In this document: positions 28,236 through 55,862 of the stretch, piece by piece
How the letters are laid out: every line of letters starts with the position of its first letter
Numbering within the stretch: the first letter of the stretch is position 1
From: Bacteroidota bacterium
GTDB taxonomy: Bacteria; Bacteroidota; Bacteroidia; Palsa-948
NCBI GenBank assembly: GCA_003164895.1
Contig: PLUL01000071.1
Location: 6,679-70,678 of the forward strand
DNA length: 64,000 bases
Reading direction: 5' to 3'
Made by a program: the position numbers and the translations under genes
The notes under the pieces: model-generated
The model's input: the letters and a program-made list of their open reading frames with translations, nothing else
What the model was told of the DNA's origin: nothing
Databases searched by the model: none

Positions 28236-30233
28236 TTATCTTGCGATGGATATTTTTTTATTTATCTCTCCGTAATCAGTAGTAATTTTTATAAAGTATG
28301 AACTTGCAGGTAATGTTGAGCAATCAAAAGTTATATTACTTAACTTGTTAGAATACATTTTTTCATAGACAATTTCACCGAGAACATTTATCAACTTAAT
28401 GGATTCTATGTGCGGAAGATGGTCGTCTGTATTAATTAATATTTCGGAAGAAGCTGGATTTGGATACACAGATACATTATGAGATAAAGTTGAGATGGAA
28501 GATATTTCCGTAACTGTATTATTTGCTGAAATGAGCCACTGGTTTGGATCAAACTTTACAGAATCAGCATGAAAAGAAAGCTGGATGGAAAAAACTTGTC
28601 CAGAAGAAGTGTTTGTCAAACGGACGATTGTATCCTTTGTAGAATTTTTAAATTCAACCGGAATGTCAAGACCAAAAAATGAAACTGAAGATGGTTTGGA
28701 AGCGGACTGCATCACATTAAGTGTAACCAAATTGGAAACATCCTGCGACCAGATTAATTGATAACTAGGAAAACCTTCTCCATAATACCACTGAATAAAA
28801 TAAGTTGTGAGATTTTTTCCAGATGCAGATTCAATATGTGCTTTCAGATCGGATGTTCGCGCAAAATTATATGAAAGCAAAGGATCGTTCAAATAATTTT
28901 TAACTCCTGCAAAAAAGCCGGAGTCGCCAACCTGATAACGCAGTTGATGTAGAAAGTAACCGGCTTTTTGATAGGTTAGTCGTTGATCAAAAATTCTTTT
29001 TACCGATGAAGTATCACTCACCCAAATTGCTCCATCCGGCTGGCTGGTAATACTGCCAAGTAGATTATTTTTCCAGATGTGCCACCAATAACCGTTGTCA
29101 AGGTATTCATAGCAAAGATCGGTGAGATAAACAGCAAATCCTTCATTGAGAAAAATATCTTCCCAACTTCCGCAGGTAACTTTATCGCCAAACCATTGGT
29201 GTGCGCATTCGTGCACAAGCAGTTCGAAATAAAAATTTCCGGCATAACTCATAGTTTGATGTTCCATCCCGCCTCCCCAACCGAATTTCGCATGACCATA
29301 TTTTTCTTTTTGAAATGGATAAATTTCAAAAAGAGAATCAAATAAAAGTAATCCAGGAATCATGCTTTGAATGGCACCATGATCACCGGCGGAATCTTCG
29401 GTCCAGAGATAATTCAGAATCTGTAATGTATCGGTTTTAAAAATTGCTTTGTCGGAACAAACAGAAAATTTTGCAACATCAATTGCCACAAGGTAAGTTG
29501 CAATTGGATATCGGTGTTTCCAGTGATAGGTTGTAAATCCACTGGAAATATTTGAAGAGACAAGCAACCCATTACTTGCGTCTTTGTATTGAGAAGGAGT
29601 GGTAACAAAAATATCAATCGAATCAATTTTATCGGTGAGTGAATTTTTGCAAGGCCACCATTCTCTTGCACCATAAGGTTCTGATAAAGTCCAGATGGTG
29701 TAGGTGGAATCAGGTCCATGTTTTTTTTGCCCGAAAGAACCAAAGCCGGAAGTATCGGTTGGTGGAATACCGTGATAATAAATATCTGCATTGTATTTAG
29801 TTCCTGAATTAAGTGAAGACGGGAAATTAATAGTGAGCATATTTCCGCTGTGAGAAAAAGTAGTTTTCTGATTTTGATAAAGCACGGAATCTGCCACGAG
29901 CGAATCGGACATGTCAAGCGTGATGGAAGAAAGATTGTTTGCGGGAATAAAATAAGTATTGATATGACCTGAAATAAATTTTATTGCTGGGTCAATGTTC
30001 CAATAGCATTGATCGTAAACAATATTGTAATTTGTTGTGAGCGGATTCTCGTGAAAATTTATTCTTGCCTGAGCTGAGCGCTGTTCCCCTTCAATGATTT
30101 TATTTTCTACTTCTAAAGATGGAGGTTGAATATTGGATAATCCGATTGGGTTTTTATTCTGAGAAATACAGTGAGTGAAAGGAGAAAAAAAAGTGATGAA
30201 AAAAAGAAAACCGATGCTGCGAATTTTTTTCAT
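28236..30233 (-). CDS. M1-family zinc aminopeptidase with a C-terminal T9SS (type-A, Por_Secre_tail) sorting domain
   Basis: HExxH-(18)-E zinc site: VHECAHQWFGDKVTCGSWEDIFLNEGFAVY. GAREWWPC resembles the GAMEN exopeptidase motif. The last ~80 aa (SVYPNPASSEILINTDD...YFIKITTDYGEINKKISIAR) are the T9SS CTD. Confidence 0.85.
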   Translation of the reverse strand: MKKIRSIGFLFFITFFSPFTHCISQNKNPIGLSNIQPPSLEVENKIIEGEQRSAQARINFHENPLTTNYNIVYDQCYWNIDPAIKFISGHINTYFIPANNLSSITLDMSDSLVADSVLYQNQKTTFSHSGNMLTINFPSSLNSGTKYNADIYYHGIPPTDTSGFGSFGQKKHGPDSTYTIWTLSEPYGAREWWPCKNSLTDKIDSIDIFVTTPSQYKDASNGLLVSSNISSGFTTYHWKHRYPIATYLVAIDVAKFSVCSDKAIFKTDTLQILNYLWTEDSAGDHGAIQSMIPGLLLFDSLFEIYPFQKEKYGHAKFGWGGGMEHQTMSYAGNFYFELLVHECAHQWFGDKVTCGSWEDIFLNEGFAVYLTDLCYEYLDNGYWWHIWKNNLLGSITSQPDGAIWVSDTSSVKRIFDQRLTYQKAGYFLHQLRYQVGDSGFFAGVKNYLNDPLLSYNFARTSDLKAHIESASGKNLTTYFIQWYYGEGFPSYQLIWSQDVSNLVTLNVMQSASKPSSVSFFGLDIPVEFKNSTKDTIVRLTNTSSGQVFSIQLSFHADSVKFDPNQWLISANNTVTEISSISTLSHNVSVYPNPASSEILINTDDHLPHIESIKLINVLGEIVYEKMYSNKLSNITFDCSTLPASSYFIKITTDYGEINKKISIAR

Positions 30234-31001: not shown

Positions 31002-33491
31002 TTATTCTTTTGGCTTCTTTATATCTAATGGAACAACTAATTTAATACTAATATTTCTTCCCATGTTATAAATGCCGCTTCGCCCTGTCCAGTTATTCGG
31101 ATAGTTATCGAAATATTTTAGGCGATTCATGTTGGACTGATAAGCAACATTCGCCAGATTTGTCCCGAGAATATTCAGCGAAAAAAGAGTATTCCCTTTT
31201 TTGTCCACCACGTTTCCGCCAATTCCGGCATCAAACAAAGTGTAACTCGGAGTTTTTGTTTCCGTTCCATACGCGGAATAAAAATGATTTTGTTCAGCAT
31301 AATATTGTACACCTGCTTTTACAAATATATTTGCAAAAGAACCGACTCTTTTCTTGAACTCCGCACGTAATTCGGTGTTGGTGTGAAATGGTGGAATGAG
31401 CGGAAGAAATTTTGTACTGTCGGTAATTTTTATGCCATTCCCGCCTAAGTTCACTGCGTAAATATAAGAGATGGAATTTTCAAAATGCAGCCAGTCGAAC
31501 GGATGCGGATGAATATCAAGATTTAATTCTCCTCCGTAAAGTTGCGCGGTGGTTTGAAAGAATTTGAAGACAGGATATTTATCTCCGCCTTGTGTGAAGA
31601 TAGAATCTCCGCCATGAACACTCTGAAGTTTTGCATCGTAAATATAATTGCTGATGTTGTTATTGAAAACTCCAGCGCTTCCCGAAACGTGTGTGCTGTT
31701 GAAAAAAATTCCGACATCTTCCTGCAAACTGAATTCGGGTTTGAAATCCGCATCGCCTAATTGTTCAAAGCCGGTTCCGGGATGAACACCTTTTGCCGAA
31801 ATCTCATCAATGTTTGGCGCACGATAACCGCGGGCAATGTTTCCTTTTATTCCGATATGATCGTTGAAATTATAGGTGGCACCAACACTTCCGCTTGCTC
31901 CTGAAAAAGTGTGTTTGTAATAATCAAATTGTTTTTTAACTGAAGTGTCCTTAGGATTAGCTTGAGTTGCCATATCAAAACCTGTTGTTGGATTTGGCTT
32001 GGTAAACATGGAATCATTTTGAAACATTCGTACATCGTATCTTACTCCGGCAGATAAATCCAGCTTGCCAAAAGTTTTTTTCACCTGCACAAAAGGACCA
32101 ACATCAAAAGAATGATAAGATGGAATTACCATTTCAGTTCCTTTGCTCGCGCTATTATCCTGATACATTCCATTCACGCCAACGGTTGTTTCCCATTTTT
32201 TTACTTCCGGCAAATAATATTTTATATCGTAAGAAAATGTATTGAGAATTAAATATAATCCTGCAACATCAGGATACAAAGGATGACTAAATTCCTGACG
32301 AATGCTTTGTTGCAATCCCACATTCACCGCCAACTTACTCTTTCCGAAAATAAAATTGCTGGTAGAAAAAGCTCGGTAATGCTGAACATGCTGATGCAAA
32401 ATTCCAATCTTGTATGAATTTAATTCCTGATTGCTTACGATTTGCCGCACGGTATCTGCTTCAGAAATTTGTTTGGTAAATTTTCTGGTTGCGGAATCTC
32501 GGCTTCCGTCAGGAATTTCCTGCAAGTTGTCATACACGCTGAAATTCAGGTGAGAATATCCCCAGGAGCGATGCAATCCCAAGTAAGCATTCAAATCGTT
32601 CTCATTGTATTTTGTTCCATAAACTCTTCCGTCAAATTTATTTTCATAATCGCTTGCTTGTTTATGCGAACCTCGGAATCCCCACACAAAACCATTACTG
32701 TTTCCGTCAAGATTAATTGATGCAGCAATTTGTTTATTGTTCGTTTGATAATTAGTTAACACATTTCCTTTTATTGTTCCGTCAGGAACCGGATTTGCAG
32801 GAATCAAATTCACAACGCCTGCCAGCGCATCGCTTCCATACATCAAACTTGCTGGACCTTTCACTACTTCAATATGGTCAATCAGAAATTGGTCAACTTC
32901 AATTCCGTGTTCATCGCCCCACTGCTGCCCTTCCTGTCTAACTCCGTCAAATAAAGTAAGCACGCGGTTGTATCCAAGTCCGTCAATAAATGGTTTTGAA
33001 ACATTTGGTCCGGTGGTTAGTGTACTCACGCCCGGAATTTTATTCATGGTTTCAATAATATTTGTGGAGGCATTTTGAGTGAGATATTGCTGGCTGAGGG
33101 CAACCATCGGCACAGGATTCTTTTTTATCTCTGTTGCTTTGGATGTGCCGGTAACCACCACTTCGGTAATTTCTGTAACGGCAGTTTGCATCACAAAATC
33201 TTTTGTTGTCGTGACGGAGAGGTCAATGGTTTCGGTGATGGTGGCATAACCTTCCATGCTCACTTTCACCAGCACTTTTGAAGTGGGAAGATTGTCAATG
33301 AAATAAGTTCCATCGGGTTTGGACATCGCTCCTGTTTTCAAATCAGGAATATAAATTTGAACGCCGGGTAAAGTTTCTTTTGTGTCTTTATCTGTAATTT
33401 TCCCAGATAAAGAAGTTTTGCCAGGTGAGGCAAAGGCAATGTGTGAGACACTTATCAGAATTCCTATATATATGTGAAAGATAGTTTTCAT
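31002..33491 (-). CDS. TonB-dependent outer-membrane receptor (CarbopepD_reg-like N-domain, plug, 22-strand barrel)
   Basis: Signal peptide, then SGKITDKDTKETLPGVQIYIPDLKTGAMSKPDGTYFIDNLP (carboxypeptidase-regulatory-like domain). Plug motifs VVVTGT...IDHIEVVKGPASLMYGSDALAGVVNLI. C-terminal barrel ends with an aromatic-rich final strand. Confidence 0.88.
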   Translation of the reverse strand: MKTIFHIYIGILISVSHIAFASPGKTSLSGKITDKDTKETLPGVQIYIPDLKTGAMSKPDGTYFIDNLPTSKVLVKVSMEGYATITETIDLSVTTTKDFVMQTAVTEITEVVVTGTSKATEIKKNPVPMVALSQQYLTQNASTNIIETMNKIPGVSTLTTGPNVSKPFIDGLGYNRVLTLFDGVRQEGQQWGDEHGIEVDQFLIDHIEVVKGPASLMYGSDALAGVVNLIPANPVPDGTIKGNVLTNYQTNNKQIAASINLDGNSNGFVWGFRGSHKQASDYENKFDGRVYGTKYNENDLNAYLGLHRSWGYSHLNFSVYDNLQEIPDGSRDSATRKFTKQISEADTVRQIVSNQELNSYKIGILHQHVQHYRAFSTSNFIFGKSKLAVNVGLQQSIRQEFSHPLYPDVAGLYLILNTFSYDIKYYLPEVKKWETTVGVNGMYQDNSASKGTEMVIPSYHSFDVGPFVQVKKTFGKLDLSAGVRYDVRMFQNDSMFTKPNPTTGFDMATQANPKDTSVKKQFDYYKHTFSGASGSVGATYNFNDHIGIKGNIARGYRAPNIDEISAKGVHPGTGFEQLGDADFKPEFSLQEDVGIFFNSTHVSGSAGVFNNNISNYIYDAKLQSVHGGDSIFTQGGDKYPVFKFFQTTAQLYGGELNLDIHPHPFDWLHFENSISYIYAVNLGGNGIKITDSTKFLPLIPPFHTNTELRAEFKKRVGSFANIFVKAGVQYYAEQNHFYSAYGTETKTPSYTLFDAGIGGNVVDKKGNTLFSLNILGTNLANVAYQSNMNRLKYFDNYPNNWTGRSGIYNMGRNISIKLVVPLDIKKPKE

Positions 33492-34314: not shown

Positions 34315-37300
34315 ATGAAAAAAATAATTATTCTCTTTTTTCTTTTTATCATTTTTAAAATTTCATTAGCGCAGACAGGAACTGTTACCATTACCCCAAC
34401 ATATTCTGTTTGTCTCGGCACAGTTGTAACCATGACAGCGAGCGGTTTTGTTGCGCCAACCATTACACGATGGGAAACATCACCTAATAATAATCCGCCA
34501 TGGACTGCGATTGCTTCTTCTAATTCTCCTACGATCACAGTTACGGCATCAGCTTCTCTTTATTATAGAGCGGTGGCTACAACAGGTCTTGCTGCAACCA
34601 ACTCCGCACTTCTAACTATTAATCAGCCATCAGCAGGAACAGTTTCATCAAATGCAACCGTATGTTCAGGAATTAACAGCGGAACATTAACACTATCAGG
34701 AACTTTTACTTCTGTTAATTTCTGGGAATATTCTATTGATGGTGGAAATACCTGGACTCCAATTTCAAATACAACCACTTCACAAAATTATTTGAACTTA
34801 ACAACATACACTCAATACAGAGTCGATATGACAAACGGAATTTGTCCGTCAGCAAAGGCAACACCTGCCATAATCACTGTGAATCCAACTTCTATCGGAG
34901 GAACAGCTGCGGGAACTGCAACTGTTTGTTCCGGCTCAAATGGCGGAACATTACTATTGAGTGGATATTCTGGAAGTGTTATCAAATGGCAATCATCAAC
35001 TGATGGAGATATTACATGGACAAATATTACGAATATTACAAATACAAATAATTATTCCAACATCACGCAAACAACCGATTACAGAGCGGTGGTTCAAAGT
35101 GGAACATGCGCTTCAGCAAATTCATCGTCTGCAACCATTTCTGTTTCCCCTGTTTCGGATGGAGGAACAATTTCTGGAGCGGCTTCGGTTTGCAGTGGAG
35201 CAAATAATGGCACATTAACTTTAAGCGGACAGACAGGAACTATTTTGAATTGGAGTTCCTCAATTGATGGCGGAAATACTTGGACACCGATTGCAAACAC
35301 AACATCTTCACAAAATTATTCCAACTTAATTGCGACAACAATGTATTTGGCAACGGTGCAGAACGGTTCATGTGCTTCTGCAAATTCAACTTCAGCAACA
35401 ATTACAGTTTCTCCTGGATCAATTGGTGGTATTGTTTTAGGAGCAACTTCAACTTGTGCAGGTTCAAACAACGGAACATTGACTTTAAGCGGATACACTG
35501 GAAATATTGTCAGATGGCAATCATCGGTTGACGGAGGAATAACTTGGGCAAACATTACAAACACATCCGCTTATAATAATTATTCAAACTTGGCACAGAC
35601 TACTGATTTCAGAGCGGTAGTTCAAAACGGAATTTGTGCTGCTGCAAATTCTTCCATAGCAAGAATAACCATCGTTCCCATTTCTGATGGCGGAACTGTG
35701 AATAGTAACGCAACGGTATGTTCAGGTGCAAATAACGGAACGCTTCAACTTATTAATTACACCGGTACTGTTGCTCAATGGGAAAAATCCACCGACAATG
35801 GCTTTAACTGGAATATAATTTCAAACGGGACCGATACGCTCAGTTATTCCAACCTAACAATAAAAACTTTATTTCGAGCGCTTGTTCAAAGCGGAACTTG
35901 CACTGCAAATTATTCCACACCAGCAACTATCACAATAAATTCTCTATCTGTCGGTGGAATTATTTCAGGTGCTGATACAATTTGCAGCGGTTCTAATAGT
36001 GGTAATTTAATTTTAAGTGGATATTTTGGCAGCATTGTGAGATGGCAGTCATCAACAGATGGCGGTGTATCGTGGAATAATATTTCCAACACCACAGCAA
36101 TTTATAATTATGTAAATATTGTTACCACTACAAATTATAGAGCGGTGATTCAGAACGGAGGATGCCCTGCTGCGAATTCTGCCGATGCAATTATCACCGT
36201 GTTTCCTGTTTCGGCTGGAGGAAATCTTTCTCCCGCAGCATTTTCTGCTTGCAATGGAATCAATAACGGAACAATTATTTTAAGCGGACATTCTGGAAAT
36301 ATTATCAAGTGGCAATCATCGATTGATGGCGGAGTAACATGGATGGATATTGCAAATACATCTATTGCTCAGGATTTTCAAAACCTTACTGCAACTACAA
36401 TTTACAGAGCTGTTGTTCAGAACGGACAATGCGCGCCTGCTTATTCGGCAGTATCAACAATCACTGCATCTCCTCAAACTGTTGGCGGAACTGTTTCTGG
36501 AAACGATACCGTTTGCACCGGAACAAATAATGGTTCACTTGTGCTGAATGGATTCACTGGAAGTATTCTCTACTGGGAAAAATCTATTGATGGAGGGTTA
36601 ACCTGGACAACAATTTCAAATACTACTGCGATGCAGAATTATTCCAACCTTTTAATTACAACAATGTATCATGCCGTTGTTCAAAGCGGTTCGTGTGCAA
36701 CAGCAAATTCGGCAAGTGCAACAATTTTAGTTTATCCTGCAACAATTGGCGGAAGTGTTCTCGGAAGTAAAGTTGTCTGCGACAGTTCTTCAACTGGATT
36801 ATTAACTTTATTTGGACATACAGGAAATATTCTTCGCTGGGAAAAATCTTTTGATAGCGGAATTACATGGACTCCTATTGTTAGCGCATCAAATACAATT
36901 TCTTATTCTGGAATTAAAACAGTAACTATGTTCCGTGCAGTGGTGCAAAGCGGAATATGTGTTTCTGCTGTTTCTGCACCGGCAACTGTTTCACTTTCTT
37001 TGCCTGTTCAAGCGGCATTTACCGATGTGATTAACGGAGCAACGGTTATTTTCACCAATACAAGTAATGGAAATATCGGAACAAGTGCTTGGGATTTTGG
37101 AGATGGAACTACAAGTGCTACTACCAACACAGCGCACAATTACATTGCAAACGGAACTTATCTTGTAAAATTAATTGTTGCCGATTCCTGCGGAAGCGAT
37201 ACGACAGCGCATATTGTTACCATAAATGGAGTTGGAATTAAGGAATTGTCATATAACAATCCTGAAGTGAAAGTTTTTCCGAATCCATCCAATGGGGTTT

Positions 37301-37494
37301 TCAATTTGCAGATGAATAAGTTTGAAAATGTGCTAATTAAAATATATGATATTTTGGGCGAATGTATTTATCAGCACATATGCCAATCTTTAAATCTTCA
37401 AATTGATTTATGCAATTCGCCTCGTGGAATTTATTTTTACACGCTCCAATCTCAAAACGAAATAATTGCAACAGGGAAGATTGTGAAAGAATAA
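34315..37494 (+). CDS. T9SS-secreted surface protein with 10 tandem ~93-aa Cys-containing repeats, one PKD domain, and a C-terminal T9SS (type-A) sorting domain
   Basis: 1059 aa with a signal peptide. Each repeat has GG(T/I)..G...VCSG.N.GTL.L.G..G.I..W(Q/E).S.DGG.TW..I.NTT...NYSNL..TT.YRAVVQ.G.C..ANS..A.ITV.P. PKD region has WDFGDGTTS...YLVKLIV. C-terminus VKVFPNPSNGVFNLQMN...IYFYTLQSQNEIIATGKIVKE is the Por_Secre_tail. Confidence 0.85.
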   Translation: MKKIIILFFLFIIFKISLAQTGTVTITPTYSVCLGTVVTMTASGFVAPTITRWETSPNNNPPWTAIASSNSPTITVTASASLYYRAVATTGLAATNSALLTINQPSAGTVSSNATVCSGINSGTLTLSGTFTSVNFWEYSIDGGNTWTPISNTTTSQNYLNLTTYTQYRVDMTNGICPSAKATPAIITVNPTSIGGTAAGTATVCSGSNGGTLLLSGYSGSVIKWQSSTDGDITWTNITNITNTNNYSNITQTTDYRAVVQSGTCASANSSSATISVSPVSDGGTISGAASVCSGANNGTLTLSGQTGTILNWSSSIDGGNTWTPIANTTSSQNYSNLIATTMYLATVQNGSCASANSTSATITVSPGSIGGIVLGATSTCAGSNNGTLTLSGYTGNIVRWQSSVDGGITWANITNTSAYNNYSNLAQTTDFRAVVQNGICAAANSSIARITIVPISDGGTVNSNATVCSGANNGTLQLINYTGTVAQWEKSTDNGFNWNIISNGTDTLSYSNLTIKTLFRALVQSGTCTANYSTPATITINSLSVGGIISGADTICSGSNSGNLILSGYFGSIVRWQSSTDGGVSWNNISNTTAIYNYVNIVTTTNYRAVIQNGGCPAANSADAIITVFPVSAGGNLSPAAFSACNGINNGTIILSGHSGNIIKWQSSIDGGVTWMDIANTSIAQDFQNLTATTIYRAVVQNGQCAPAYSAVSTITASPQTVGGTVSGNDTVCTGTNNGSLVLNGFTGSILYWEKSIDGGLTWTTISNTTAMQNYSNLLITTMYHAVVQSGSCATANSASATILVYPATIGGSVLGSKVVCDSSSTGLLTLFGHTGNILRWEKSFDSGITWTPIVSASNTISYSGIKTVTMFRAVVQSGICVSAVSAPATVSLSLPVQAAFTDVINGATVIFTNTSNGNIGTSAWDFGDGTTSATTNTAHNYIANGTYLVKLIVADSCGSDTTAHIVTINGVGIKELSYNNPEVKVFPNPSNGVFNLQMNKFENVLIKIYDILGECIYQHICQSLNLQIDLCNSPRGIYFYTLQSQNEIIATGKIVKE

Positions 37495-37728
37495 CGAAAA
37501 TATTTCTTCAATGACAATATATTTTCTATTTTTGTCTACCTCCATTTTATTAAATGACACAATTGTTTCATTTTTAAAATATTTGCTGCATATATATGCA
37601 TGCTTTTTGTTTTATAAATTCTGCCAAAGAATAAATAATCAATGCAAATAATAATTCAGAAATATTAAATGTTTACAGATAGTAACATCACGCATTATAA
37701 AACTAACATACTTACTAATTTATTAAAG

Positions 37729-40473
37729 ATGAAAACAATCCAATTACTTTTCGTTGTTATGCTTATTTTTTTACGTATGAGCATTCATGCGCAAAACGTT
37801 GTTCCTGAAAATAACAGCGCAATGTATTTTAATCGTTGTGGGCAAGTAGAGTATGAGAATTTTTTGCGTGAAAAAGACCCTATGTATGACATCAAAAGGC
37901 AAGAGGCAGAAAAAACTATTGCCAAGAAAATAAATGAAATGAATAATGCGAGGCAGAGTGGTATTCCACAACCACAATCGCAATATATAATTCCAATTGT
38001 GTTTCATGTGTTGTATAATACAACAGCGCAAAATATTTCTGACGCACAGGTGCAATATAATCTTAATCAATTAAATCAGGATTGGTCGCGTACAAACACC
38101 GATGCAAGTAACACTCCTTCGGCATGGCAAAGTATTGCTGCCAATATGAATGTAACGTTTTGTCTTGCAACGCAAGACCCCAGTGGAGCTCCCACCACCG
38201 GTATTATTCATAAGTCAACAACGGTTACTTCCTTCTCATCGAATGATTATGTAAAAAGTTCTGCCCAAGGTGGCGATGACCCTTGGGATAATACCAAGTA
38301 TTTGAATATTTGGATTTGTAATTTGGGAGGTGGATTACTTGGTTACAGTGCATTTCCGCCTGTCACTTCAACATGGGGTGCAGTAATATATTATACCACA
38401 GTTGGAAGTTTAGCACAACCTAATTCTGCAGGGGGTGCTTACGGTTACGGTCGAACACTTTCACATAACGTTGGACACTGTTTTAATCTTTATCATACTT
38501 GGGGAGATGATGCCGGAGCGTGCACGGGTACTGATTATGTAAGTGATACTCCAAATATGGCAGATGCTACATACGGTTGTCCAAGTGGAGTAGTAACCGA
38601 TGCATGTGGTGCTGGTTCTGACGGTAGCCCTGGTTCAAATATTGCACCGGGTCGAATGTATCAGGATTTTATGGATTATACCGATGATATGTGCTATAAT
38701 ATGTTCACTACAGGTCAACGAACAAGAGTGCAAAGCGCAATTACATCTTACTTAATGACGGTAGCGAACAATTCCGCAACTGCATGTAGTGCATCACCCT
38801 CATTATCCGTTTCCATTATAGGCGGGAATAACAGTATTTGTAATGGAAATTCAGATTCGCTTTTTGCATCAGTGAGTGGCGGCACATCTCCTTATAATTA
38901 TTCGTGGAGCACAGGTCAAACCGATGCACTAATATTAACGAGTCCAACTTCCACCACCACGTATACCGTAACTGTTACAACCGGCAGCCTTGTTGCAACA
39001 GCAACAACTGTAGTTACAGTAAATTCTGTTTCTGCTACAATTACAGGCAATACTTCAATTTGTTCGGGACAAAATACAACTCTCTCTGCATCCGGTGGAG
39101 CAACTTATTCTTGGAATACAGGAGTAACAACAACTTCCATCATTGTAAATCCAACCGTACTTACCACTTATACCCTAACCTCCGCTACTGCCTCTTGTGT
39201 TGCAAAGGCAACTACAACTGTTACCGTAAATCAATTGCCAACTGTTTCCATATCGGGCAACACGACTATTTGCCTTGGGCAAAACACAACTCTAAGTGCA
39301 TCAGGAGGGGGAACGTATCTTTGGAACACAGGACCAACTACATCTGCAATTACTGTTATGTCAACAGCTTTTACAACCAATTCGTATTCGGTTACAGTTT
39401 CAAATGGAAATTGTTCAAGTGTAGCTTCTGTTGCAGTAACTGGTACATATCCAACTGCTAATTTTACATCGAACACCCCACTTTGTCTTGGTGATCCGGC
39501 AGTATTTACAGATTTATCTACCGGAGGTATCAGTTCTTGGTATTGGAATTTTGGTGATGGAGAAATATCAAATTCACAAAGCCCATCACACGCATATTCC
39601 GTTGCAGGAACTTATACTGCCTCGCTGACAGCAACGAGTCAATATGGATGTAAGGACTCACTCACACAAACTGTAGCAGTAAATCCAAAACCTGCTTCAA
39701 GTTTCATGTCTAATACTCCGGTTTGTCTGGGTGTTCCAACTGTATTTACCGATGGTTCAACCGGTGGAGTCGTTTCATGGTCTTGGACATTTGGTGAGGG
39801 CGGCAATTCCACATTACAAAATCCTGCATTTACTTATACGTCAGCTTCCACTTATACCGTTGCTGAGATTGTAACAAATCAGTACGTATGTAAAGATAGC
39901 AGTACAAAAAGTGTAACCGTAATGAACGGGCTAAATGTAAATTTAACTTTGGTTCAAGACATATCAAATCCATTATTGTGGAATGTGTACGATACAATTA
40001 CCGGAGGCACTGCTCCGTTTACATATCTATGGAACTTTGGCGATGGCAATACTTCTACGCTCCAATATCCATCACATACCTACTCTGTGTCCGGACATTA
40101 TGCTATATCGTTAACTGTTACTGATGCCAATGGATGTATCAGTTCCGTAGATGATTCCACTTATAGAATTTCTTCTGCCGGCATAATTCAATATGTTATT
40201 GTTGTAGATCCGCTTGTAACTGCTACTCAGAATTTACAATTCACAAATGACATTAGTATTTTTCCAAACCCATCAAACGGAAGCTTCATTTTTAACTGCA
40301 CGGTTTCAAAAGGAGAGTTGGAAATTTATAATGTAATGGGAGAAAAAGTGTATTCATCTTTAATAACAAATCAATCTACTTCTATAAATATTGATGCGCC
40401 CAATGGCATTTACTTTCTACAATTAAAAACGGAGCAGGTGATAGCAACAAAAAAAATTGCGATAAATAAGTAA
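37729..40473 (+). CDS. M43 (pappalysin/cytophagalysin)-like metzincin homolog with a non-canonical zinc site (HNxxH), SprB-type repeats, two PKD domains, and a C-terminal T9SS (type-A) sorting domain
   Basis: Signal peptide plus pro-region. Catalytic-region motif LSHNVGHCFNLYHTWGDDAGACTGTDYVSDTPN aligns with the M43 HExxHxxGxxH...DTP block, but the DNA reads CAT AAC (His-Asn). SprB-like repeats (ICNGNSDSLFASVSGGTSPYNYSWSTGQTD and similar). PKD motifs WNFGDGEIS and WTFGEGGNS. C-terminus ISIFPNPSNGSFIFN...IYFLQLKTEQVIATKKIAINK. The track start at 37669 is probably an extension. Confidence 0.8.
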   Translation: MKTIQLLFVVMLIFLRMSIHAQNVVPENNSAMYFNRCGQVEYENFLREKDPMYDIKRQEAEKTIAKKINEMNNARQSGIPQPQSQYIIPIVFHVLYNTTAQNISDAQVQYNLNQLNQDWSRTNTDASNTPSAWQSIAANMNVTFCLATQDPSGAPTTGIIHKSTTVTSFSSNDYVKSSAQGGDDPWDNTKYLNIWICNLGGGLLGYSAFPPVTSTWGAVIYYTTVGSLAQPNSAGGAYGYGRTLSHNVGHCFNLYHTWGDDAGACTGTDYVSDTPNMADATYGCPSGVVTDACGAGSDGSPGSNIAPGRMYQDFMDYTDDMCYNMFTTGQRTRVQSAITSYLMTVANNSATACSASPSLSVSIIGGNNSICNGNSDSLFASVSGGTSPYNYSWSTGQTDALILTSPTSTTTYTVTVTTGSLVATATTVVTVNSVSATITGNTSICSGQNTTLSASGGATYSWNTGVTTTSIIVNPTVLTTYTLTSATASCVAKATTTVTVNQLPTVSISGNTTICLGQNTTLSASGGGTYLWNTGPTTSAITVMSTAFTTNSYSVTVSNGNCSSVASVAVTGTYPTANFTSNTPLCLGDPAVFTDLSTGGISSWYWNFGDGEISNSQSPSHAYSVAGTYTASLTATSQYGCKDSLTQTVAVNPKPASSFMSNTPVCLGVPTVFTDGSTGGVVSWSWTFGEGGNSTLQNPAFTYTSASTYTVAEIVTNQYVCKDSSTKSVTVMNGLNVNLTLVQDISNPLLWNVYDTITGGTAPFTYLWNFGDGNTSTLQYPSHTYSVSGHYAISLTVTDANGCISSVDDSTYRISSAGIIQYVIVVDPLVTATQNLQFTNDISIFPNPSNGSFIFNCTVSKGELEIYNVMGEKVYSSLITNQSTSINIDAPNGIYFLQLKTEQVIATKKIAINK

Positions 40474-40597: not shown

Positions 40598-41446
40598 ATG
40601 AAAATATTTAAATGGATAGGGATAATTATTCTGACTTTAATTGTAGTAGGTGTAACTGCATATTTTGCTTACGTCCGTCCGTTCATGAAAAAGATGGAAG
40701 AAACAACTGTCGTGCAATACGACAAAGAACTTACACTTGTTTTAGGCGGAGGTGGCAACAGCGGAATATTAGTGTCGGATAGTTTGGTTGTTGTGATTGA
40801 TACTAAAATGCATGAAGCTGCTGATCTGCTTTTTAAAAAAGTAGAAGAGCTTGCTGGTAATAAACCAATTATTGTTATTAATACACATTTTCATCCCGAT
40901 CATACCGGAGGAAATAAATTTTATAAAGGTCAAACCATTATTGCAGGAGGTAATTACACGAAAGAATTCTGGATAGGAGAAGCCGATGAAGAAAGTTTGC
41001 CAACTCAATGGTTAAAAGACAGAATGGATATTAAAATGGGAGACGATACCATAACCCTGATCAATATCGGTCGAAATGCTCACACTGCAAGCGATGTTGT
41101 TGTTTATTTACATAAAAGAAAAATGTTGTTTGGCGGAGATGTAATTCTCAACAAACAAGCCCCGGTGTTTATGGGAGTTGCAGATCCCGATGGTTATTTG
41201 TACGCATTGGATATGTTGCCAAAACAATTCGATATTCAGAAAATAGTTCCGGGTCACGGGGCTGTAGGAGGAATTGAAATCATAACCAACTTCCGTCAAT
41301 ATTTTGTTGATATGAATACCGCAGCAAATGATGATTCAAAAAAGGATGAACTTGTTACAAAATATAAAGACTGGGTTCAGATGCCAATTTTTATGTCTCC
41401 GGGCGCTACAATAAGTGCAATCAAAAAGAAAGCACAGAAAAAATAA
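40598..41446 (+). CDS. MBL-fold metallo-hydrolase (metallo-beta-lactamase superfamily), membrane-anchored
   Basis: N-terminal TM helix IGIIILTLIVVGVTAYFAY. HxHxDH metal-binding motif INTHFHPDHTGGN, and a downstream His (VPGHGAVGG). 282 aa. Confidence 0.85.
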   Translation: MKIFKWIGIIILTLIVVGVTAYFAYVRPFMKKMEETTVVQYDKELTLVLGGGGNSGILVSDSLVVVIDTKMHEAADLLFKKVEELAGNKPIIVINTHFHPDHTGGNKFYKGQTIIAGGNYTKEFWIGEADEESLPTQWLKDRMDIKMGDDTITLINIGRNAHTASDVVVYLHKRKMLFGGDVILNKQAPVFMGVADPDGYLYALDMLPKQFDIQKIVPGHGAVGGIEIITNFRQYFVDMNTAANDDSKKDELVTKYKDWVQMPIFMSPGATISAIKKKAQKK

Positions 41447-44290: not shown

Positions 44291-45265
44291 ATGAACGAAC
44301 CCCAAAAACTTATGCCTATGAAAAAAATAATTCTACTCTTTGTGTGCTTTGCATCTTTAATTATTAAAAATCAGGCACAAACCGTATCCGACTTGGACGG
44401 CAATGTTTACGACACCGTAAAAATTGGCACACAAGTTTGGTTAAAAGAAAATTTAGCAACCACCAAATACAATGATGGTACTTTAATTCCATTGGTAAAA
44501 GATAGTATGCAATGGATTGGTTTGACTACTCCCGGATATTGCTGGTATAGAAACGATTCTGCTACTTACAAAAATCCTTATGGCGCTTTATATAATTGGT
44601 ACACGGTAAATACTGGCAAACTGTGTCCTACTGGTTGGCATGTGCCATCAAATGCAGAATGGCATACCTTGATTTTATTTCTTGACCCAAGTGCAACAGA
44701 TTGTTATTGCACAGAAAGTGCAACAGCGGGAGACAAATTGAAAGAGGCAGGAATAACTCATTGGGGTACAGGAAACACTGCAACTAATAGCAGCGGGTTT
44801 ACTGCTATGCCTGGCGGTTTCAGGAATTATTATGATAAAAATTTTGAAGGACGTACTTCGGTTGCATATTTTTGGAGTTCAACAGTAGGCGCATCCGGCA
44901 CCACAATATGGCACAGATGGATGCCGAATAATAACGCCAATATATTCGAATATCTTGATCAAAAAATTCAGGGCATGTCGGTACGCTGTTTAAAAGATTC
45001 TATATCTACCGGATTAAATAACATTAATTATGAAAACAGATTAAAAATATTTCCTAATCCAGCAACTGATATTATAAATATTAATTGTACTGAAAAGCAG
45101 ATTATAAAAATGCAAGTTTATAATGCAATTGGAGAATGTGTAATCCAAAAAGAATTGAATAATTATACAAATCAAATTGATGTTAGTTTTTTGCCGAAAG
45201 GAATTTATGTGATTAAACTTACAGGAGTAAATTGGACAGAGCAACATAAATTGACTAAAGAATAA
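44291..45265 (+). CDS. FISUMP (Fibrobacter succinogenes major paralogous) domain protein with a C-terminal T9SS (type-A) sorting domain
   Basis: Signal peptide. LDGNVYDTVKIGTQVWLKENLATTKYNDGTLIP...YGALYNWYTV...CPTGWHVPSNAEWHTLI are characteristic FISUMP motifs. C-terminus RLKIFPNPATDIININCTEKQ...GIYVIKLTGVNWTEQHKLTKE is the Por_Secre_tail. Confidence 0.8.
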   Translation: MNEPQKLMPMKKIILLFVCFASLIIKNQAQTVSDLDGNVYDTVKIGTQVWLKENLATTKYNDGTLIPLVKDSMQWIGLTTPGYCWYRNDSATYKNPYGALYNWYTVNTGKLCPTGWHVPSNAEWHTLILFLDPSATDCYCTESATAGDKLKEAGITHWGTGNTATNSSGFTAMPGGFRNYYDKNFEGRTSVAYFWSSTVGASGTTIWHRWMPNNNANIFEYLDQKIQGMSVRCLKDSISTGLNNINYENRLKIFPNPATDIININCTEKQIIKMQVYNAIGECVIQKELNNYTNQIDVSFLPKGIYVIKLTGVNWTEQHKLTKE

Positions 45266-45318
45266 TATTATATCTGAAATAAAAATTCATTCAAACAACA
45301 ACATTAAAACTAACTACC

Positions 45319-46617
45319 ATGAAAAAAATCATACTCCTAATTATGCTGATTTTTACGATAGTAAAAATTCAAGCTCAGAATTATCAAATCAGTTTTGCAG
45401 GAACAGGCGCAAGCGCAACTGTTGATTCTGTAAAAATTGAAAACCTATCTCAATGCACCGATACTTCCATTGGCGGAAGCAATATTTTAAATCTCACTCC
45501 AATGGTAACGGGAATAAACGAAAATACGATGGCAGATAATGTGATACACATTTATCCTAATCCAATTTCAGGTTTTTGTTCGGTAGAATTTAATGCAATT
45601 GATGGAGGCAATACAACTCTTGAACTTGATAACATAAACGGAAAAAAAATTGTGCAAGTACATGAATTATTATCACAAGGAAATCATACTTACTACCTGA
45701 GCGGGATCAGCACCGGAGTTTATATTCTGAAAATAGAATCGGATAAATATTCTTATTCGTCAAAAATTGTAAGTATAAATGCAGAATCAGGTACTGCCGA
45801 AATAAAACATATTGGAACAAATCCTATCACAAATAAACAAGATACTTTGATTGGGGGAAAAATAAGTGGATTGGAAAATAACAATATCCTTTCTCTTATT
45901 TCAATGCAATACAACACAGGCGACACCCTGAAGCTGACTGGAAAATCTGGTAACTATCGTACTGTTGTTATGTTAATGCCATCCCAAAGCCAAACTGTAA
46001 CTTTTACTTTTGTTAATTGTACCGATGCCGATAATAACCATTACGCTGTGGTGCAAATAGGCACTCAGGTGTGGATGGAAGAAAATTTAAAAACCACCAA
46101 GTATCGCGATGGCTCAAGCATTCCGAATGTGCCAGACAGCGCTACATGGAGAAATACAACCTCCGGAGCATATTGCGATTATCACAACCTTCCTGCCGAA
46201 GGCGCTGCTTATGGTCATATCTATAATTTTCGTGCAGTAGCAGATGTTCGTAACATGGCGCCCGTTGGCTGGCACGTAGCGAGTGATTCAGAATGGACGG
46301 TATTTACAAATTTTCTTGGAGGCGCCAACATTGCAGGACGCAAGCTGAAAGAAAATTGCAACACGCGTTGGGCATACCAGGATACCACTTGGGGAAACAA
46401 TATAAGTGGCTTCACAGCACTTTGTGCAAACTTCCGCAACACATCAGGAGCTTGGAGTATGGCACCGAACAATGACCACGACTGTGGCTTTTGGACTTCT
46501 ACTTCGGACGGTACAGCATTTGCGTGGGCAAGATTGCTGCGTTGGTGTTATGGTGATGTGTGGATTGGACCTCCCATGTATAATTCTGGATATTCCGTTC
46601 GTTGCATAAAAGATTAG
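45319..46617 (+). CDS. FISUMP domain protein with an internal T9SS-CTD-like beta-sandwich domain (inverted domain order relative to the neighbouring paralog)
   Basis: Signal peptide MKKIILLIMLIFTIVKIQAQ. Residues ~75-150 IHIYPNPISGFCSVEFNAIDGGNTTLELDNINGKKIVQVHE...GVYILKIESDKYSYSSKIVSI resemble a Por_Secre_tail domain but sit mid-protein. C-terminal half has FISUMP motifs: AVVQIGTQVWMEENLKTTKYRDGSSIP...GWHVASDSEWTVF. Confidence 0.75.
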   Translation: MKKIILLIMLIFTIVKIQAQNYQISFAGTGASATVDSVKIENLSQCTDTSIGGSNILNLTPMVTGINENTMADNVIHIYPNPISGFCSVEFNAIDGGNTTLELDNINGKKIVQVHELLSQGNHTYYLSGISTGVYILKIESDKYSYSSKIVSINAESGTAEIKHIGTNPITNKQDTLIGGKISGLENNNILSLISMQYNTGDTLKLTGKSGNYRTVVMLMPSQSQTVTFTFVNCTDADNNHYAVVQIGTQVWMEENLKTTKYRDGSSIPNVPDSATWRNTTSGAYCDYHNLPAEGAAYGHIYNFRAVADVRNMAPVGWHVASDSEWTVFTNFLGGANIAGRKLKENCNTRWAYQDTTWGNNISGFTALCANFRNTSGAWSMAPNNDHDCGFWTSTSDGTAFAWARLLRWCYGDVWIGPPMYNSGYSVRCIKD

Positions 46618-48197: not shown

Positions 48198-49568
48198 CTA
48201 ACCCTTTCTCACAAACAACTGTGCCGTTTCATATTTCACGACAAGGATTTTTTCACCTTTATCAATGAAACCTGATTCTGCTGTGGCATCGTAAACATCT
48301 CCATCAATTTCTACTTTTCCGGATGGGCGCAGAACGGTGAAAGCAGATCCTTCTTTGCCAACTAAGTTAAGTGAGGTCATGTCAACTCCCACGAATCCAT
48401 GTGCTTTTGAGTTTACTGATTTCACAGAAACTCTGCTGAATGCAGATGATTTAATAAATCGTCCGAATAAATAAAACGACAAGCCGATGGAAATGGTCGT
48501 GGATGCAAGCACGATGAATAGTGCGCTGATAAAAGCATTTCCTTCAGGAAGATTTACAGGAAAATTTGTCGGAACGCTTTTTACGAGCGAAAGTGCGAGC
48601 CCAAGTACGATAAATAAAACCCCCAGCGCGCCAGCCACTCCAAATCCCGGTATTACAAAAACTTCGAGAGCAAGTAAAATTACTCCAACAAAAAAGATAA
48701 GTATCTCCCAATTTTCCGCCAGTCCTTGCAAATAATGCGGAGCAAAATAAAGCAGCGCTGCAAGCATGGATGCCGCGATTGGAAAAATTGTTCCAGGTGC
48801 CTGAAATTCATAATAGATCCCGGCAATGATGATCATGATCAGAAATCCGCTGATAGCAGGATTGATAAGCCAGTCAATAGCAGTTCCTACACCTGAAATT
48901 TCGTATGTGATAATTTCATAATTTTCAACGTGCGCGAGTTTCAAAACTTCTTCCACCGATTTTGCTTCTCCTTCGCAGAAATGATTCTTAATTGCTTCGC
49001 TAGTGGTGAACGTCAATACTTTTCCTGAATCATTCACCCCTGGAATATATGCGCGTGAATCGTTCATTGCTTCAGCAATTTTTTGGTCACGTTTATTTTG
49101 TTCGGCAGTAGAACGCAGGATGGAACGCATATAGCTCTGGTATTTTTCAGGAGCAGGTTTTCCGTCCTGTCCGACCACCGTTGCTGCGCCAATATTTGCA
49201 CCCGGTGCCATGTAAATACTGTCGCATGAAATGGCAATAAGCGCTCCGGCAGAAGCTGCGTTGTTATCTACATAAGCATATACCGGAATCTTGCAATTTA
49301 GAATTGCGGTGCGCATTTTATCTGCATCGTCCACCGCGCCTCCGTAGGTATTCAAATAAAGAATAATGTAATCTGCTTTTGCATCAGACGCTTGTTTTAA
49401 TCCTTCCAGCAAATGACGCGAAGAAACGGGACCGATCTCTTCTTTGATGGGAAGAACGTAAACAATCGGTTTCAGGTTTTTGGGTCTGAATGTTTCTTGA
49501 GCAAATACAGAGTAGCAGGTAGCAAGTATTAAGTAGCAAGTAAGGAGAAAAGAAAAAATATTTTTCAT
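48198..49568 (-). CDS. NfeD-family membrane-bound serine protease (long form: ClpP-like domain, TM bundle, C-terminal OB-fold)
   Basis: Signal peptide. ClpP-class region ILYLNTYGGAVDDADKMRTAILNCKIPVYAYVDNNAASAGALIAISCDSIYMAPGANIGAAT. Four or five TM segments in the middle. C-terminal soluble beta-rich domain. Confidence 0.85.
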   Translation of the reverse strand: MKNIFSFLLTCYLILATCYSVFAQETFRPKNLKPIVYVLPIKEEIGPVSSRHLLEGLKQASDAKADYIILYLNTYGGAVDDADKMRTAILNCKIPVYAYVDNNAASAGALIAISCDSIYMAPGANIGAATVVGQDGKPAPEKYQSYMRSILRSTAEQNKRDQKIAEAMNDSRAYIPGVNDSGKVLTFTTSEAIKNHFCEGEAKSVEEVLKLAHVENYEIITYEISGVGTAIDWLINPAISGFLIMIIIAGIYYEFQAPGTIFPIAASMLAALLYFAPHYLQGLAENWEILIFFVGVILLALEVFVIPGFGVAGALGVLFIVLGLALSLVKSVPTNFPVNLPEGNAFISALFIVLASTTISIGLSFYLFGRFIKSSAFSRVSVKSVNSKAHGFVGVDMTSLNLVGKEGSAFTVLRPSGKVEIDGDVYDATAESGFIDKGEKILVVKYETAQLFVRKG

Positions 49569-49583
49569 TTGTTATATCCGGAA

Positions 49584-50744
49584 CTAAGTTAACTTCTTTT
49601 TTTCAAGCTTTCTAAAATAAAATATACCGACTATTCCCAAAAAGAAAAGCAGCGTTGAAATAATTTCTGCCTGTGTAATATGATTTCCAAAGATGTTGTA
49701 CGTTGTATTGATGCGAATTTTCTCTATGAAAAATCGTTCTACTCCGTTTAAAATAAGATAAACGCAAAACATAACACCGGGAGTTGTAATTTTTTTGCGC
49801 AGACTCCATAGAACAAAAAATAACGAGATACAAATTATCGCTTCCCAAAGCGGAGTAGGGAAGACAGGATTTTCAAGTACAGAACAATATTTTCCGGTGC
49901 AATCAGGAATCGGAATTCCAACGTTGTTCACATTGTGAGGATATTTATAAGCCCAAGCCCAGTCCGGAAGAAAAAACCAAGATGGTTTTGCTGATAGATT
50001 ATCAATTCCCCAATCGCCATCGCCAGCCATCTGGCAGCCGAGCCTGCCGACACCGTAAGCAAGCATGAGCGAAGGAGCGCATGCATCAATGAGATGCGTG
50101 GTGGTGATTCCATTTTTTCTTGCGTAATAGATAACAGAAAAAGCCGCAACGATCAAACCTCCGTACATCGTGAGTCCGCTGAAAGAAAAAATACTTCCCA
50201 TTGGATCGCGTATAAATTCATCCAGGTTTTCAAGATTGTGAAATATTTTTGCTCCGAGAATGCCAGCAACGGCAGCGATGAGCGTCATGTTCGGAACGTG
50301 CTCGTAAGGATGAAGTTTTACGACGACCAGCTCAGGTTTTGGAAGCTGTGCTTTTTTCATTTCGCTGTAACGCATCCAGCCAAGTAATGCAGCTCCGGCA
50401 ATTCCTCCTATGAGATTTCCCTGAAGAGAAAGAATGAATCCTTGCGTGTCGCCTGAGAAAGCAGAAAAATTAAACGCGATGTAAACAAGTTTGTAAAATA
50501 AAATGAATCCGAAAACAGAAGAAAGAACTATCTCGGAAGTTTTTGGTGCTTCACCTTTCAAATATTTTTTTTCTCCGGCGGAAACAAGACCTTCATTTTC
50601 TTTTCGCTGAAGTTCTTTGGAGAAAAAGTAGGCGGCAAACAAAAAAGAAATTGCTACCAGCACTCCGAAGCTTTGGAATATCTGCAGGAAGCCAAGCTTT
50701 ATGCCAAAAAGGTCTTGAAAAAAATAATAGAGATTTGGATACAT
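49584..50744 (-). CDS. lgt: prolipoprotein diacylglyceryl transferase
   Basis: Polytopic. YGGLIVAAFSVIYYARK and the Lgt signature ...YGVGRLGCQMAGDGDWG (G-R-x-G-C motif). 386 aa, the long Bacteroidetes form. Confidence 0.88.
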   Translation of the reverse strand: MYPNLYYFFQDLFGIKLGFLQIFQSFGVLVAISFLFAAYFFSKELQRKENEGLVSAGEKKYLKGEAPKTSEIVLSSVFGFILFYKLVYIAFNFSAFSGDTQGFILSLQGNLIGGIAGAALLGWMRYSEMKKAQLPKPELVVVKLHPYEHVPNMTLIAAVAGILGAKIFHNLENLDEFIRDPMGSIFSFSGLTMYGGLIVAAFSVIYYARKNGITTTHLIDACAPSLMLAYGVGRLGCQMAGDGDWGIDNLSAKPSWFFLPDWAWAYKYPHNVNNVGIPIPDCTGKYCSVLENPVFPTPLWEAIICISLFFVLWSLRKKITTPGVMFCVYLILNGVERFFIEKIRINTTYNIFGNHITQAEIISTLLFFLGIVGIFYFRKLEKKKLT

Positions 50745-50753
50745 TTAGAAAAA

Positions 50754-52091: not shown

Positions 52092-52210
52092 AATAAGGAG
52101 GGCAAAGATAAAGGAAAGAAGCTAAATGTGTTAATAAACTTGTTCATCATTACTTCAGCATGGTAAGATTTTCTCGGTTATGTTTTTCTAAACTTGCTTT
52201 TCAAACTATC

Positions 52211-53854: not shown

Positions 53855-53867
53855 TCATTCGCTCATT

Positions 53868-54989: not shown

Positions 54990-54992
54990 AGG

Positions 54993-55862
54993 TTATTTCT
55001 TTCCGCTCGCTTTGAACAAAAAATCTTTTTCATCTTTCGTCAGTGCATCGTATCCCGATTTCGAGATTTTGTCGAGTATCGAATCAATTCGTTGTTGCTT
55101 TGCTTTCTGATTCAGATTGTATTCGTCATCGTTCACTTTTCGGCTGTAACTGACTTTTATTTTCGGTCGTTTTGAAAACAAACCGACAATCCAATCAAGA
55201 AAAGCGGTTACTGGTTTTGTAATATCGTTCCCATTTTTGTATTGCAGCATGAATATCATTCCGAAAAGCGCTCCGCCAATGTGTGAAATTTTCCCTCCTG
55301 TGTTTTGCGAAATATCGAGAAGACTTGTAAGAATGAATGAAGCAAGAGCAAGGTATTTGAGTTTAACTCCGCCGAAGAACACAAGATGAATCATATAATC
55401 GGGAAGAAGAATTGCAATGGCAACCACCACCGCCATCACTCCGGCAGAAGCGCCAAGTAAAATTGTATTGGAAAAATAAATTGGAAAAATCATTGATGTA
55501 AGTGTGAAAAGAATTCCCCCGCTGATTCCACCAAGAAGATAAACAGCTACCAGTCTTTTACTGCCCACATATTCCACGAAAATTTTACCGAGCCAATAAA
55601 GCCAAAGCATGTTGAATAAGATGTGCATCAATCCTTCGTGCAAAAACATGTATGTAAAAAAAGTCCAGCCATGTGTAAGAGCAAGAATTGTATCGCCGGG
55701 AAGTGCAAGCCAGTAAACCAATGAATGACCGTTTCCGGTAAATCGGATTAATTCACCAACAACATTTACGATAAAAAACACAATCACATTGATGAGAATG
55801 ATTCGCATCAATCCGTTTCCGCTTCCGGAGAAAACATTTTTCAGGTCGTCTGTTACTGACAT
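54993..55862 (-). CDS. rhomboid-family intramembrane serine protease
   Basis: Six TM segments. Catalytic GxSG (LLGASAGVMAVVVA) in TM4 and the TM6 His (ISHIGGALFG). Also HILFNMLWLYW. Confidence 0.85.
   Translation of the reverse strand: MSVTDDLKNVFSGSGNGLMRIILINVIVFFIVNVVGELIRFTGNGHSLVYWLALPGDTILALTHGWTFFTYMFLHEGLMHILFNMLWLYWLGKIFVEYVGSKRLVAVYLLGGISGGILFTLTSMIFPIYFSNTILLGASAGVMAVVVAIAILLPDYMIHLVFFGGVKLKYLALASFILTSLLDISQNTGGKISHIGGALFGMIFMLQYKNGNDITKPVTAFLDWIVGLFSKRPKIKVSYSRKVNDDEYNLNQKAKQQRIDSILDKISKSGYDALTKDEKDFLFKASGKK

Follow-up and report, generated by a model that had tools for sequence, protein, structure and literature searches.

An M43B metalloprotease homologue and predicted type IX secretion cargo of a Bacteroidota bacterium in which asparagine takes the place of the general base glutamate

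Mirolysin from Tannerella forsythia (PDB 6r7w, 6r7u) and ulilysin from Methanosarcina acetivorans (2cki, 8cdb) are metalloproteases of MEROPS family M43B, the unicellular pappalysins. The motif of the metzincin family is H-E-x-x-H-x-x-G/N-x-x-H/D, and replacement of its glutamate hampers catalysis while keeping the geometry (PMC11674741). Activation in this family is autolytic, and the E225A variant of mirolysin 'lacked activity' (PMC6949598). When Cys23 is intact, the proM-E225A zymogen is scarcely activated in trans by active mirolysin ('almost resistant'; PMC8259862), and the E-to-A zymogens of both mirolysin and ulilysin have the stability needed for crystallisation (6r7u, 8cdb). A third described member is cytophagalysin CPL1 from Cytophaga sp. 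L43-1, which has an HExxH motif (E232) and reportedly degrades collagen and gelatin (PMC11674741). Here we describe a gene found in a 64,000-nucleotide stretch of DNA from an uncultured Bacteroidota bacterium (contig PLUL01000071.1 of assembly GCA_003164895.1, hereafter the window). Judged by its sequence, the product of this gene belongs with the M43B unicellular pappalysins in all but one defining residue: the general base/acid Glu that should follow the first His of the motif is absent, and Asn267 is found instead.

The coding region contains the following features, with residues counted from the first codon of the open reading frame (ORF) unless stated otherwise.

37669..40473, + strand: the whole ORF of 934 codons, from the ORF list and its translation.
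37729..37794, + strand: putative signal peptide, MKTIQLLFVVMLIFLRMSIHAQ, read from the sequence and aligning with the N-termini of homologues.
37795..37965, + strand: pro-segment including a Cys-Gly cysteine switch (C57-G58, 37837-37842); its boundary to the mature domain is approximate.
37966..38787, + strand: M43B (unicellular pappalysin) catalytic domain, from Pfam PF05572, phmmer, and an AlphaFold2 model with Foldseek.
38464..38496, + strand: extended zinc-binding motif HNVGHCFNLYH (H266, H270, H276), from structure-sequence alignments.
38467..38469, + strand: codon AAC for Asn267, which aligns with the general base/acid Glu of mirolysin and ulilysin.
38665..38688, + strand: Met-turn DFMD (Met335), Tyr switch Y337 and S1' Asp340, from alignment with ulilysin and mirolysin.
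38788..39438, + strand: three immunoglobulin-like (Ig-like), SprB-like repeats of ~70 amino acids each (residues 374-590), from sub-threshold Pfam matches and similarity to GhpA.
39439..40218, + strand: three PKD domains, from a PKD_4 match (E = 3e-38) over 3 stretches.
40258..40464, + strand: type IX secretion system (T9SS) type A C-terminal sorting domain (CTD), residues 864-932 of 934, from PF18962 and TIGR04183.

The probable true start is M21 at position 37729, where the closest homologue (P0001) begins, and the first 20 codons precede the signal peptide. The Pfam Peptidase_M43 match covers residues 203-358 and scores 43.1 bits against a cut-off of 23. The CTD scores 39.3 bits with PF18962 (cut-off 27) and 44.8 bits with TIGR04183 (cut-off 23). 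From these domains the protein is predicted to be a multi-domain M43B protein of the cargo type, exported by the T9SS. The initial annotation had described the same architecture with SprB-type repeats, PKD domains and a T9SS CTD; the PKD domains and the CTD were recovered, but the SprB match reaches 24.2 bits and lies under the Pfam cut-off of 28. The Ig-like repeats resemble repeats of the Aureispira grappling-hook protein GhpA (9flp, E = 4.5e-22). The exact window protein is present in a public protein collection, where it corresponds to P0121.

The bases at 38464-38478 read CAT AAC GTT GGA CAC, which encodes H-N-V-G-H in the frame of 37669..40473 (+). A phmmer comparison with all PDB sequences found mirolysin (E = 2e-67) and ulilysin (E = 5e-58) over residues ~100-358. 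In these alignments the motif region GRTLSHNVGHCFNLYHTWGDD pairs ungapped with mirolysin 6r7w, with the mirolysin E225A mutant 6r7u ('GRTATHAVGH...') and with ulilysin 3lum, and the column of Asn267 is that of mirolysin E225 and ulilysin E229. The ulilysin numbering was checked on chain 3lum, an M290L mutant, which shows L where the wild type has M in 'NYMDY'. The Met of the Met-turn is thereby located, and the corresponding letters of the window protein are 'DFMDY'. The initial annotation had assigned the domain to M43 and read this codon as Asn in the place of the catalytic Glu, and both claims are borne out by the Pfam and phmmer scores and by the alignments, the family being specifically M43B. 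It had also named an HExxH elsewhere in the protein as the finding that would overturn the column assignment; HNVGH is the sole HxxxH in the 934 residues, so there is no alternative HExxH and the assignment stands.

A metzincin fold for the catalytic domain is also supported by modelling. The AlphaFold2 model, built from a 61-sequence alignment, has a pLDDT of 89 and a pTM of 0.87, and Foldseek matches it to mirolysin 6r7w with a template modelling (TM) score of 0.87 and a root mean square deviation of 1.5 A, and to ulilysin 2j83 with a TM score of 0.91.

A second proposed defect does not survive this comparison. The conserved Gly of the metzincin turn had been noted as replaced by Asn, which is true of the sequence, but Asn is the norm of the family at this position. 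Asn273 stands at the G/N position of the turn, where ulilysin has Asn too, as do 99 of the 119 nearest homologues and 338 of the 448 motifs taken together. As Asn is the majority residue and the motif allows either G or N (PMC11674741), Asn273 is not a defect.

The other hallmarks of the family are retained. In comparison with 60 homologues the window protein departs from none of the invariant columns and has all Cys residues conserved in at least 90%, among which is the switch Cys of the pro-segment. The three zinc-binding His residues, H266, H270 and H276, align with the family positions; these ligands and the downstream DTP segment had been claimed in the initial annotation and are confirmed. 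The segment DFM335D-Y337-T-D-D340 aligns with N282-D285, Y286 and D289 of mirolysin and with N-Y-M290-D-Y292 of ulilysin; the roles of Y286 and D289 in mirolysin have been described (PMC6949598). In the pro-segment, 'RCGQVEYENFL' (R56-C57-G58) aligns with 'RCGAMEVHHRLL' of pro-ulilysin (8cdb). The AlphaFold2 model places two long helices in the pro-segment with confidence, as the description of the family has them (PMC11674741). With the rest of the fold, the zinc site, the S1' pocket and the cysteine switch intact, the protein should fold and bind zinc normally.

Over the catalytic domain the window protein shares ~46% identity with mirolysin and ~39% with ulilysin. With both it has in common the fold (TM 0.87-0.91), the Cys-Gly pro-segment, the ligands H..xxHxx(N/D)xxH, the Met-turn, the Tyr switch and the S1' Asp, and mirolysin is likewise a secreted protein of a Bacteroidota species. 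It differs from them in having Asn at E225/E229, which makes it a natural mimic of the engineered E225A/E229A variants that trap the zymogen. Mirolysin has a KLIKK-type C-terminus, whereas the window protein continues into a long stalk of Ig-like and PKD domains that ends in a type A CTD. The closest architectural match is CPL1, which shares the signal peptide, the cysteine-switch pro-segment, the M43B domain, several Ig-like domains in a row and a final CTD-like domain that has been proposed as a T9SS signal (PMC11674741). In contrast to the HExxH of CPL1, the window protein has HNxxH, and its stalk domains are fewer and different (three Ig-like and three PKD).

His-Glu (HE) is found in 119 of the 119 closest homologues with a recognisable motif, led by P0001 at 69% identity and P0002 at 71% across a fragment. 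Among the collected sequences with the strict motif H-x-x-x-H-x5-H-x-W, Glu is present in 353 of 355. In an exhaustive HMMER search of 1.84 billion cluster representatives, His-Asn (HN) was absent from the best 150 of 12,685 family members (E <= 1e-3). A degenerate DNA pattern, H[N/K/Q/H]xGHx5HxWGD[D/E], gave two chance matches in JGI metagenome contigs, out of frame or full of stops, and there is no HE count for the same collection. The GTDB representative genomes, among which the source species is not included, contain relatives only at 42% and 33% identity. HN is a lineage-specific singleton of one species-level, near-clonal population, and other species have HE. Whether orthologues keep HN was a question raised by the initial annotation. 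No sign of this was seen, with little depth to the comparison, as no orthologues of intermediate divergence were found.

The substitution of Glu by Asn is real and is not a sequencing error. The identical AAC codon is present in the contigs L003/L016, L017 and L018, which belong to three other assemblies, all read CTT TCA CAT AAC GTT GGA CAC and show 0-1 mismatches over ~7.7 kb:

ERZ27254241, contig k141_255138, bearing AAC.
ERZ28664818, contig WOOD18-1_SAMN07124986 scaffold_646, bearing AAC.
ERZ27254141, contig k119_143058, bearing AAC.

These contigs were reached through a variant of 1014 residues and through the neighbouring genes; the exact 934-residue product had no contig on record. The variant (P0123, from an ENA assembly) is included in the 90% cluster of P0121 and is also HN. 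The two closest HE relatives, P0001 and P0003, use GAG, and AAC differs from GAG at the first and third bases, which excludes a single-base error. The initial annotation had argued that uniform HE among orthologues would indicate a sequencing error. The premise is correct, as the homologues from other organisms are all HE, but the conclusion fails because AAC recurs in three other assemblies and lies two bases from GAG. The locus does appear hard to assemble. The contigs of three other assemblies break within the segment encoding 'MDYTDD', the Met-turn, at 38678-38686: L017 ends at 38680, L018 ends at 38678 and L009 starts at 38686, while the 71-kb contigs read through. These breakpoints may come from an assembly-graph tangle with paralogous M43 genes, or from strain variation. 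They could be taken to favour an artefact, that is, an error of sequencing or assembly or a misassigned column, but they lie 210 nt downstream of the codon. As the alignment with the solved structures is moreover unambiguous and ungapped around the motif, and the protein has no second HxxxH, we regard an artefact of any of these kinds as extremely improbable.

The number of PKD copies varies between these sequences. The window protein has three in 934 residues, and the product of the ENA contig k141_255138 (L003) has a fourth 80-residue repeat in 1014 residues (P0123). The difference lies at 39885-39922 of the window and 5205-5254 of L003, and the DNA upstream is otherwise identical. It is either a real length variation or a repeat collapsed in the assembly of the window.

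Pseudoenzymes are found in most protease families. Among the M43B homologues collected here, several others lack the Glu or have a degenerate zinc site. P0128 lacks a pro-segment and contains two M43 domains in tandem, one with HLVGH and the other with HMVGH, ahead of FN3 repeats and a CTD. In P0142 the motif is HMIAH and the N-terminus is incomplete. Its nearest relatives, P0321-P0324, are all HE, and conservation of its E-to-M change in a clade was considered and rejected. By their sequences P0128 and P0142 are independent sporadic losses of the general base. P0266 and P0419-P0424 form a clade of proteins of 366-369 residues with an M43 domain and a T9SS CTD, at 45-50% mutual identity. The sites in this clade read YFVGH..R, HEVGH..N, HTLAH..N and SEVAH..H, and in none of its members is there a pro-segment, the signal peptide running directly into an 'ITIPVVVHV' strand. 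From these features the clade looks like a maintained pseudoprotease lineage in Bacteroidota. All of the degenerate homologues have an M43 domain, and the five with a Pfam scan or precomputed domains have M43 and a CTD. Those with a complete N-terminus (all but P0142) are without a pro-segment. A zinc ligand and the Tyr switch are missing as well from most of the degenerate homologues. No description of P0128, P0142, P0266 or P0419-P0424 was found in the literature.

P0142, like the window protein, is a singleton among HE relatives. In comparison with P0128 and the P0266 clade, the window protein keeps the pro-segment, all zinc ligands and the Tyr switch. Since the P0266 proteins group as a clade, their loss is older. 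Because the well-established dead M43B homologues have dropped the pro-segment and the window protein keeps a complete one, the inactivation of the window protein is probably young.

The position of the gene was compared with that of its relatives. A contig from a relative in JGI (Ga0500033_000006, L019, 483 kb) has ~83% DNA identity to the window and is collinear with it over 48205-59334. Collinearity stops at the nfeD gene (window 48205), and L019 continues with DUF58-thioredoxin-dnaE-M43(HE, 424 amino acids)-cofH-rpsT, the corresponding place in the window being taken by the cargo region. P0001 and P0003, the HE homologues nearest to the window protein, likewise adjoin dnaE. Both are short; P0003 consists of a catalytic domain and a CTD, and the tail of P0001 does not match the window stalk. 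The different location and the expanded Ig-like/PKD architecture suggest that the window gene is a paralogue of the dnaE-adjacent M43 gene.

Tajima relative-rate tests compared the window protein with P0001 using five outgroups. Over the whole alignment p ranged from 0.15 to 0.89, with, for example, 35 against 24 lineage-specific changes (p = 0.15). When only the catalytic domain was considered, a single outgroup of the five, P0003, stood apart with p = 0.03 (uncorrected), and the overall result is treated as negative for rate acceleration. The window-specific departures from columns conserved in at least 80% are E247N, I257T, N313D and Y314F (numbered from M21), and these cluster near the zinc site (post-hoc hypergeometric p = 0.018). 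Remodelling of the active site was considered and dropped, as HE-bearing homologues deviate as often in the same segments: there are 5 deviations in the window protein, 5 in the HE-bearing P0042, and 4 each in P0003, P0004, P0010 and P0048. The sole unique feature of the window protein is the Glu-to-Asn change itself.

We consider it probable (at roughly 70%) that this gene is one of many paralogues for secreted M43 proteins and was inactivated recently and in this lineage only, and that its product is catalytically crippled and latched. The gene would have begun as a paralogue in a genome and a phylum with many redundant M43 cargo proteases, and two nucleotide substitutions in one species-level lineage would have changed its general base/acid Glu to Asn. 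There would then be no carboxylate to deprotonate the zinc-bound water or to protonate the leaving amine. By analogy with the Glu-less variants of mirolysin, peptide hydrolysis would be abolished or cut by orders of magnitude, and this would include the autolytic removal of the pro-segment. The zinc would be held by the three His residues and the pro-segment Cys, auto-activation would fail, and T9SS export would put on the cell surface a domain that stays a latched zymogen without proteolytic activity, N-terminal to its Ig-like/PKD stalk. Both the endopeptidase activity and activation by autolysis are predicted to be lost or strongly reduced, and the impaired hydrolysis proposed by the initial annotation is a reasonable extrapolation from mirolysin E225A (PMC6949598). 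The family, the column, the codon, the retained motifs and the singleton distribution are shown by the comparisons above; we infer the loss of activity, the latched state, the recency and the paralogy. The protein does not resemble a pseudoenzyme of long standing that is conserved for a new function of its own.

Several points weigh against this reading. An intact ORF and a catalytic domain without excess divergence fit continued selection for some function equally well. The HN-bearing contigs are at least 99.6% identical to one another, and hence amount to one population and one evolutionary observation. The two hits in the AAC codon show only that this was not a single-step lesion. Paralogy is drawn from gene context, within the 64-kb window and in relatives. 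Glu-to-Gln and Glu-to-Ala mutants of matrilysin keep ~0.05-0.5% of kcat/Km, and 'dead' may therefore mean 'very slow'; a literature search for the kinetics of matrilysin E198 mutants gave nothing relevant.

The reading offered by the initial annotation was that of a maintained pseudoenzyme with a new, non-catalytic job, such as a binding or adhesin module. A protein of this kind might be a non-cleaving substrate trap for peptides or proteins containing Lys/Arg, or a decoy or regulator for active M43 paralogues or inhibitors. This would account for the intact ORF, fold-determining residues, zinc ligands and S1' Asp, for the lack of rate acceleration relative to the active sister P0001, for two substitutions in the one codon, and for the fusion to a CTD and an Ig-like/PKD stalk of the sort typically found in proteins displayed on the surface. 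Dead M43B domains have been kept for long elsewhere, in the clade of P0266 and P0419-P0424 and in P0128. A precedent among metzincins is provided by the pseudopeptidases ADAM7 (HQLGHNLGMQHD; HQLGH) and ADAM29 (HHLGHNLGMNHD; HHLGH), multi-domain cell-surface proteins in which all three His residues and the Met-turn are kept and only the Glu is lost (PMC11266112). These proteins differ from the window protein in that they belong to M12B, are eukaryotic and membrane-anchored, have documented non-catalytic roles and carry substitutions conserved across species, whereas the window HN is a singleton. The same review, which lists no M43 example, treats as pseudopeptidases otherwise intact homologues that have lost an essential catalytic residue, with the substitution conserved among orthologues (PMC11266112). 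Judged by its sequence the window protein would be such a homologue, but HN is seen only in the near-clonal contigs described above and no diverged orthologue shows it. The neighbourhood suggests no partner or ligand. The established dead M43B homologues lost the pro-segment and the window protein did not; with its cysteine switch retained the cleft would be blocked, as the Glu-less mirolysin zymogen resists activation in trans (PMC8259862). The retained pro-segment would occupy the cleft, which may stay occluded, and this weakens the idea of a binding module and leaves an adhesin role unsupported. On balance we regard a maintained non-catalytic job as unlikely. It is likewise rather unlikely that the protein is a selected, surface-displayed M43B domain that is permanently latched or traps its substrates, an early-stage bacterial pseudo-metzincin that would bind zinc and Lys/Arg ligands or protease inhibitors without cleaving them.

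The protein could also still be active as a slower or altered hydrolase. In such an enzyme Asn267 would position the zinc-bound water, proton transfer would be carried out by hydroxide, the Tyr switch or a group of the substrate, and control of latency by the pro-segment would still be needed. The full latency apparatus and the S1' pocket are indeed kept, the active site shows no decay beyond the range of the family, and matrilysin mutants with a substituted Glu have residual activity. However, Asn is unable to act as a general base, Glu is retained in all but two of the 355 strict-motif homologues, and the E-to-A forms of mirolysin, ulilysin and cytophagalysin serve as inactive forms (PMC6949598, PMC11674741; PDB 6r7u, 8cdb). 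A literature search for HNxxH metalloproteases found none, functional ones included. A working hydrolase is therefore quite improbable, and recent inactivation remains the reading that we prefer.

If the domain is inert, it would be a natural equivalent of the E225A/E229A mutants that were built to trap M43B zymogens. It would also be a clean, minimal case of a secreted bacterial metzincin turning into a pseudoenzyme, with one residue changed and the latency device kept. For annotation, this gene and a minor share of the 'M43 family zinc metalloprotease' entries from Bacteroidota genomes (about 1% of the homologues inspected, or about four proteins and one small clade among ~360) are probably not proteases, and this matters when secreted degradative capacity is counted from metagenomes. 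If the domain were a selected latched or substrate-trapping one, then together with the dead clade that lacks the pro-segment it would represent successive stages of pseudoenzyme evolution in T9SS cargo. No major question is opened or settled by this case, and there is no evidence here of conservation or of a new function.

The window is unusually dense in T9SS substrates, and the genes around the M43 gene include the following.

6559-9264, - strand: large PKD/CHU_C protein with 6 PKD_4 matches, almost all PKD repeats.
9999-13958, - strand: large PKD/CHU_C protein with 12 PKD_4 matches, almost all PKD repeats.
28236-30233: M1 aminopeptidase with a CTD and an intact HECAH.
31002-33491: TonB-dependent receptor.
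34315-37494: PKD/CTD protein of 1059 amino acids, immediately upstream of the M43 gene.
40598-41446: MBL-fold gene, directly downstream of the M43 gene.
44291-46617: two Fib_succ_major/CTD proteins.

Directly downstream there is also a TPR-histidine kinase/LuxR pair. Within the 64-kb window no core genes of the T9SS were identified; the presence of a T9SS is implied by at least six other proteins in the window that bear a CTD or CHU_C domain. The block opposite L019 (28236-48205) comprises T9SS cargo genes, the TonB receptor, the MBL-fold gene and the TPR-histidine kinase/LuxR pair. A foreign-island origin was considered on the basis of composition and rejected, as the guanine plus cytosine content is unremarkable.

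The T9SS sorting domain is usually found at the extreme C-terminus of a protein. In the 432-residue ORF at 45319-46617 (+) the Por_Secre_tail match covers residues 78-151 and is N-terminal to Fib_succ_major (245-431). This odd domain order could reflect a wrongly called start, two genes fused into one or an unusual architecture. The same order of Por_Secre_tail and Fib_succ_major is recorded for this gene in other assemblies.

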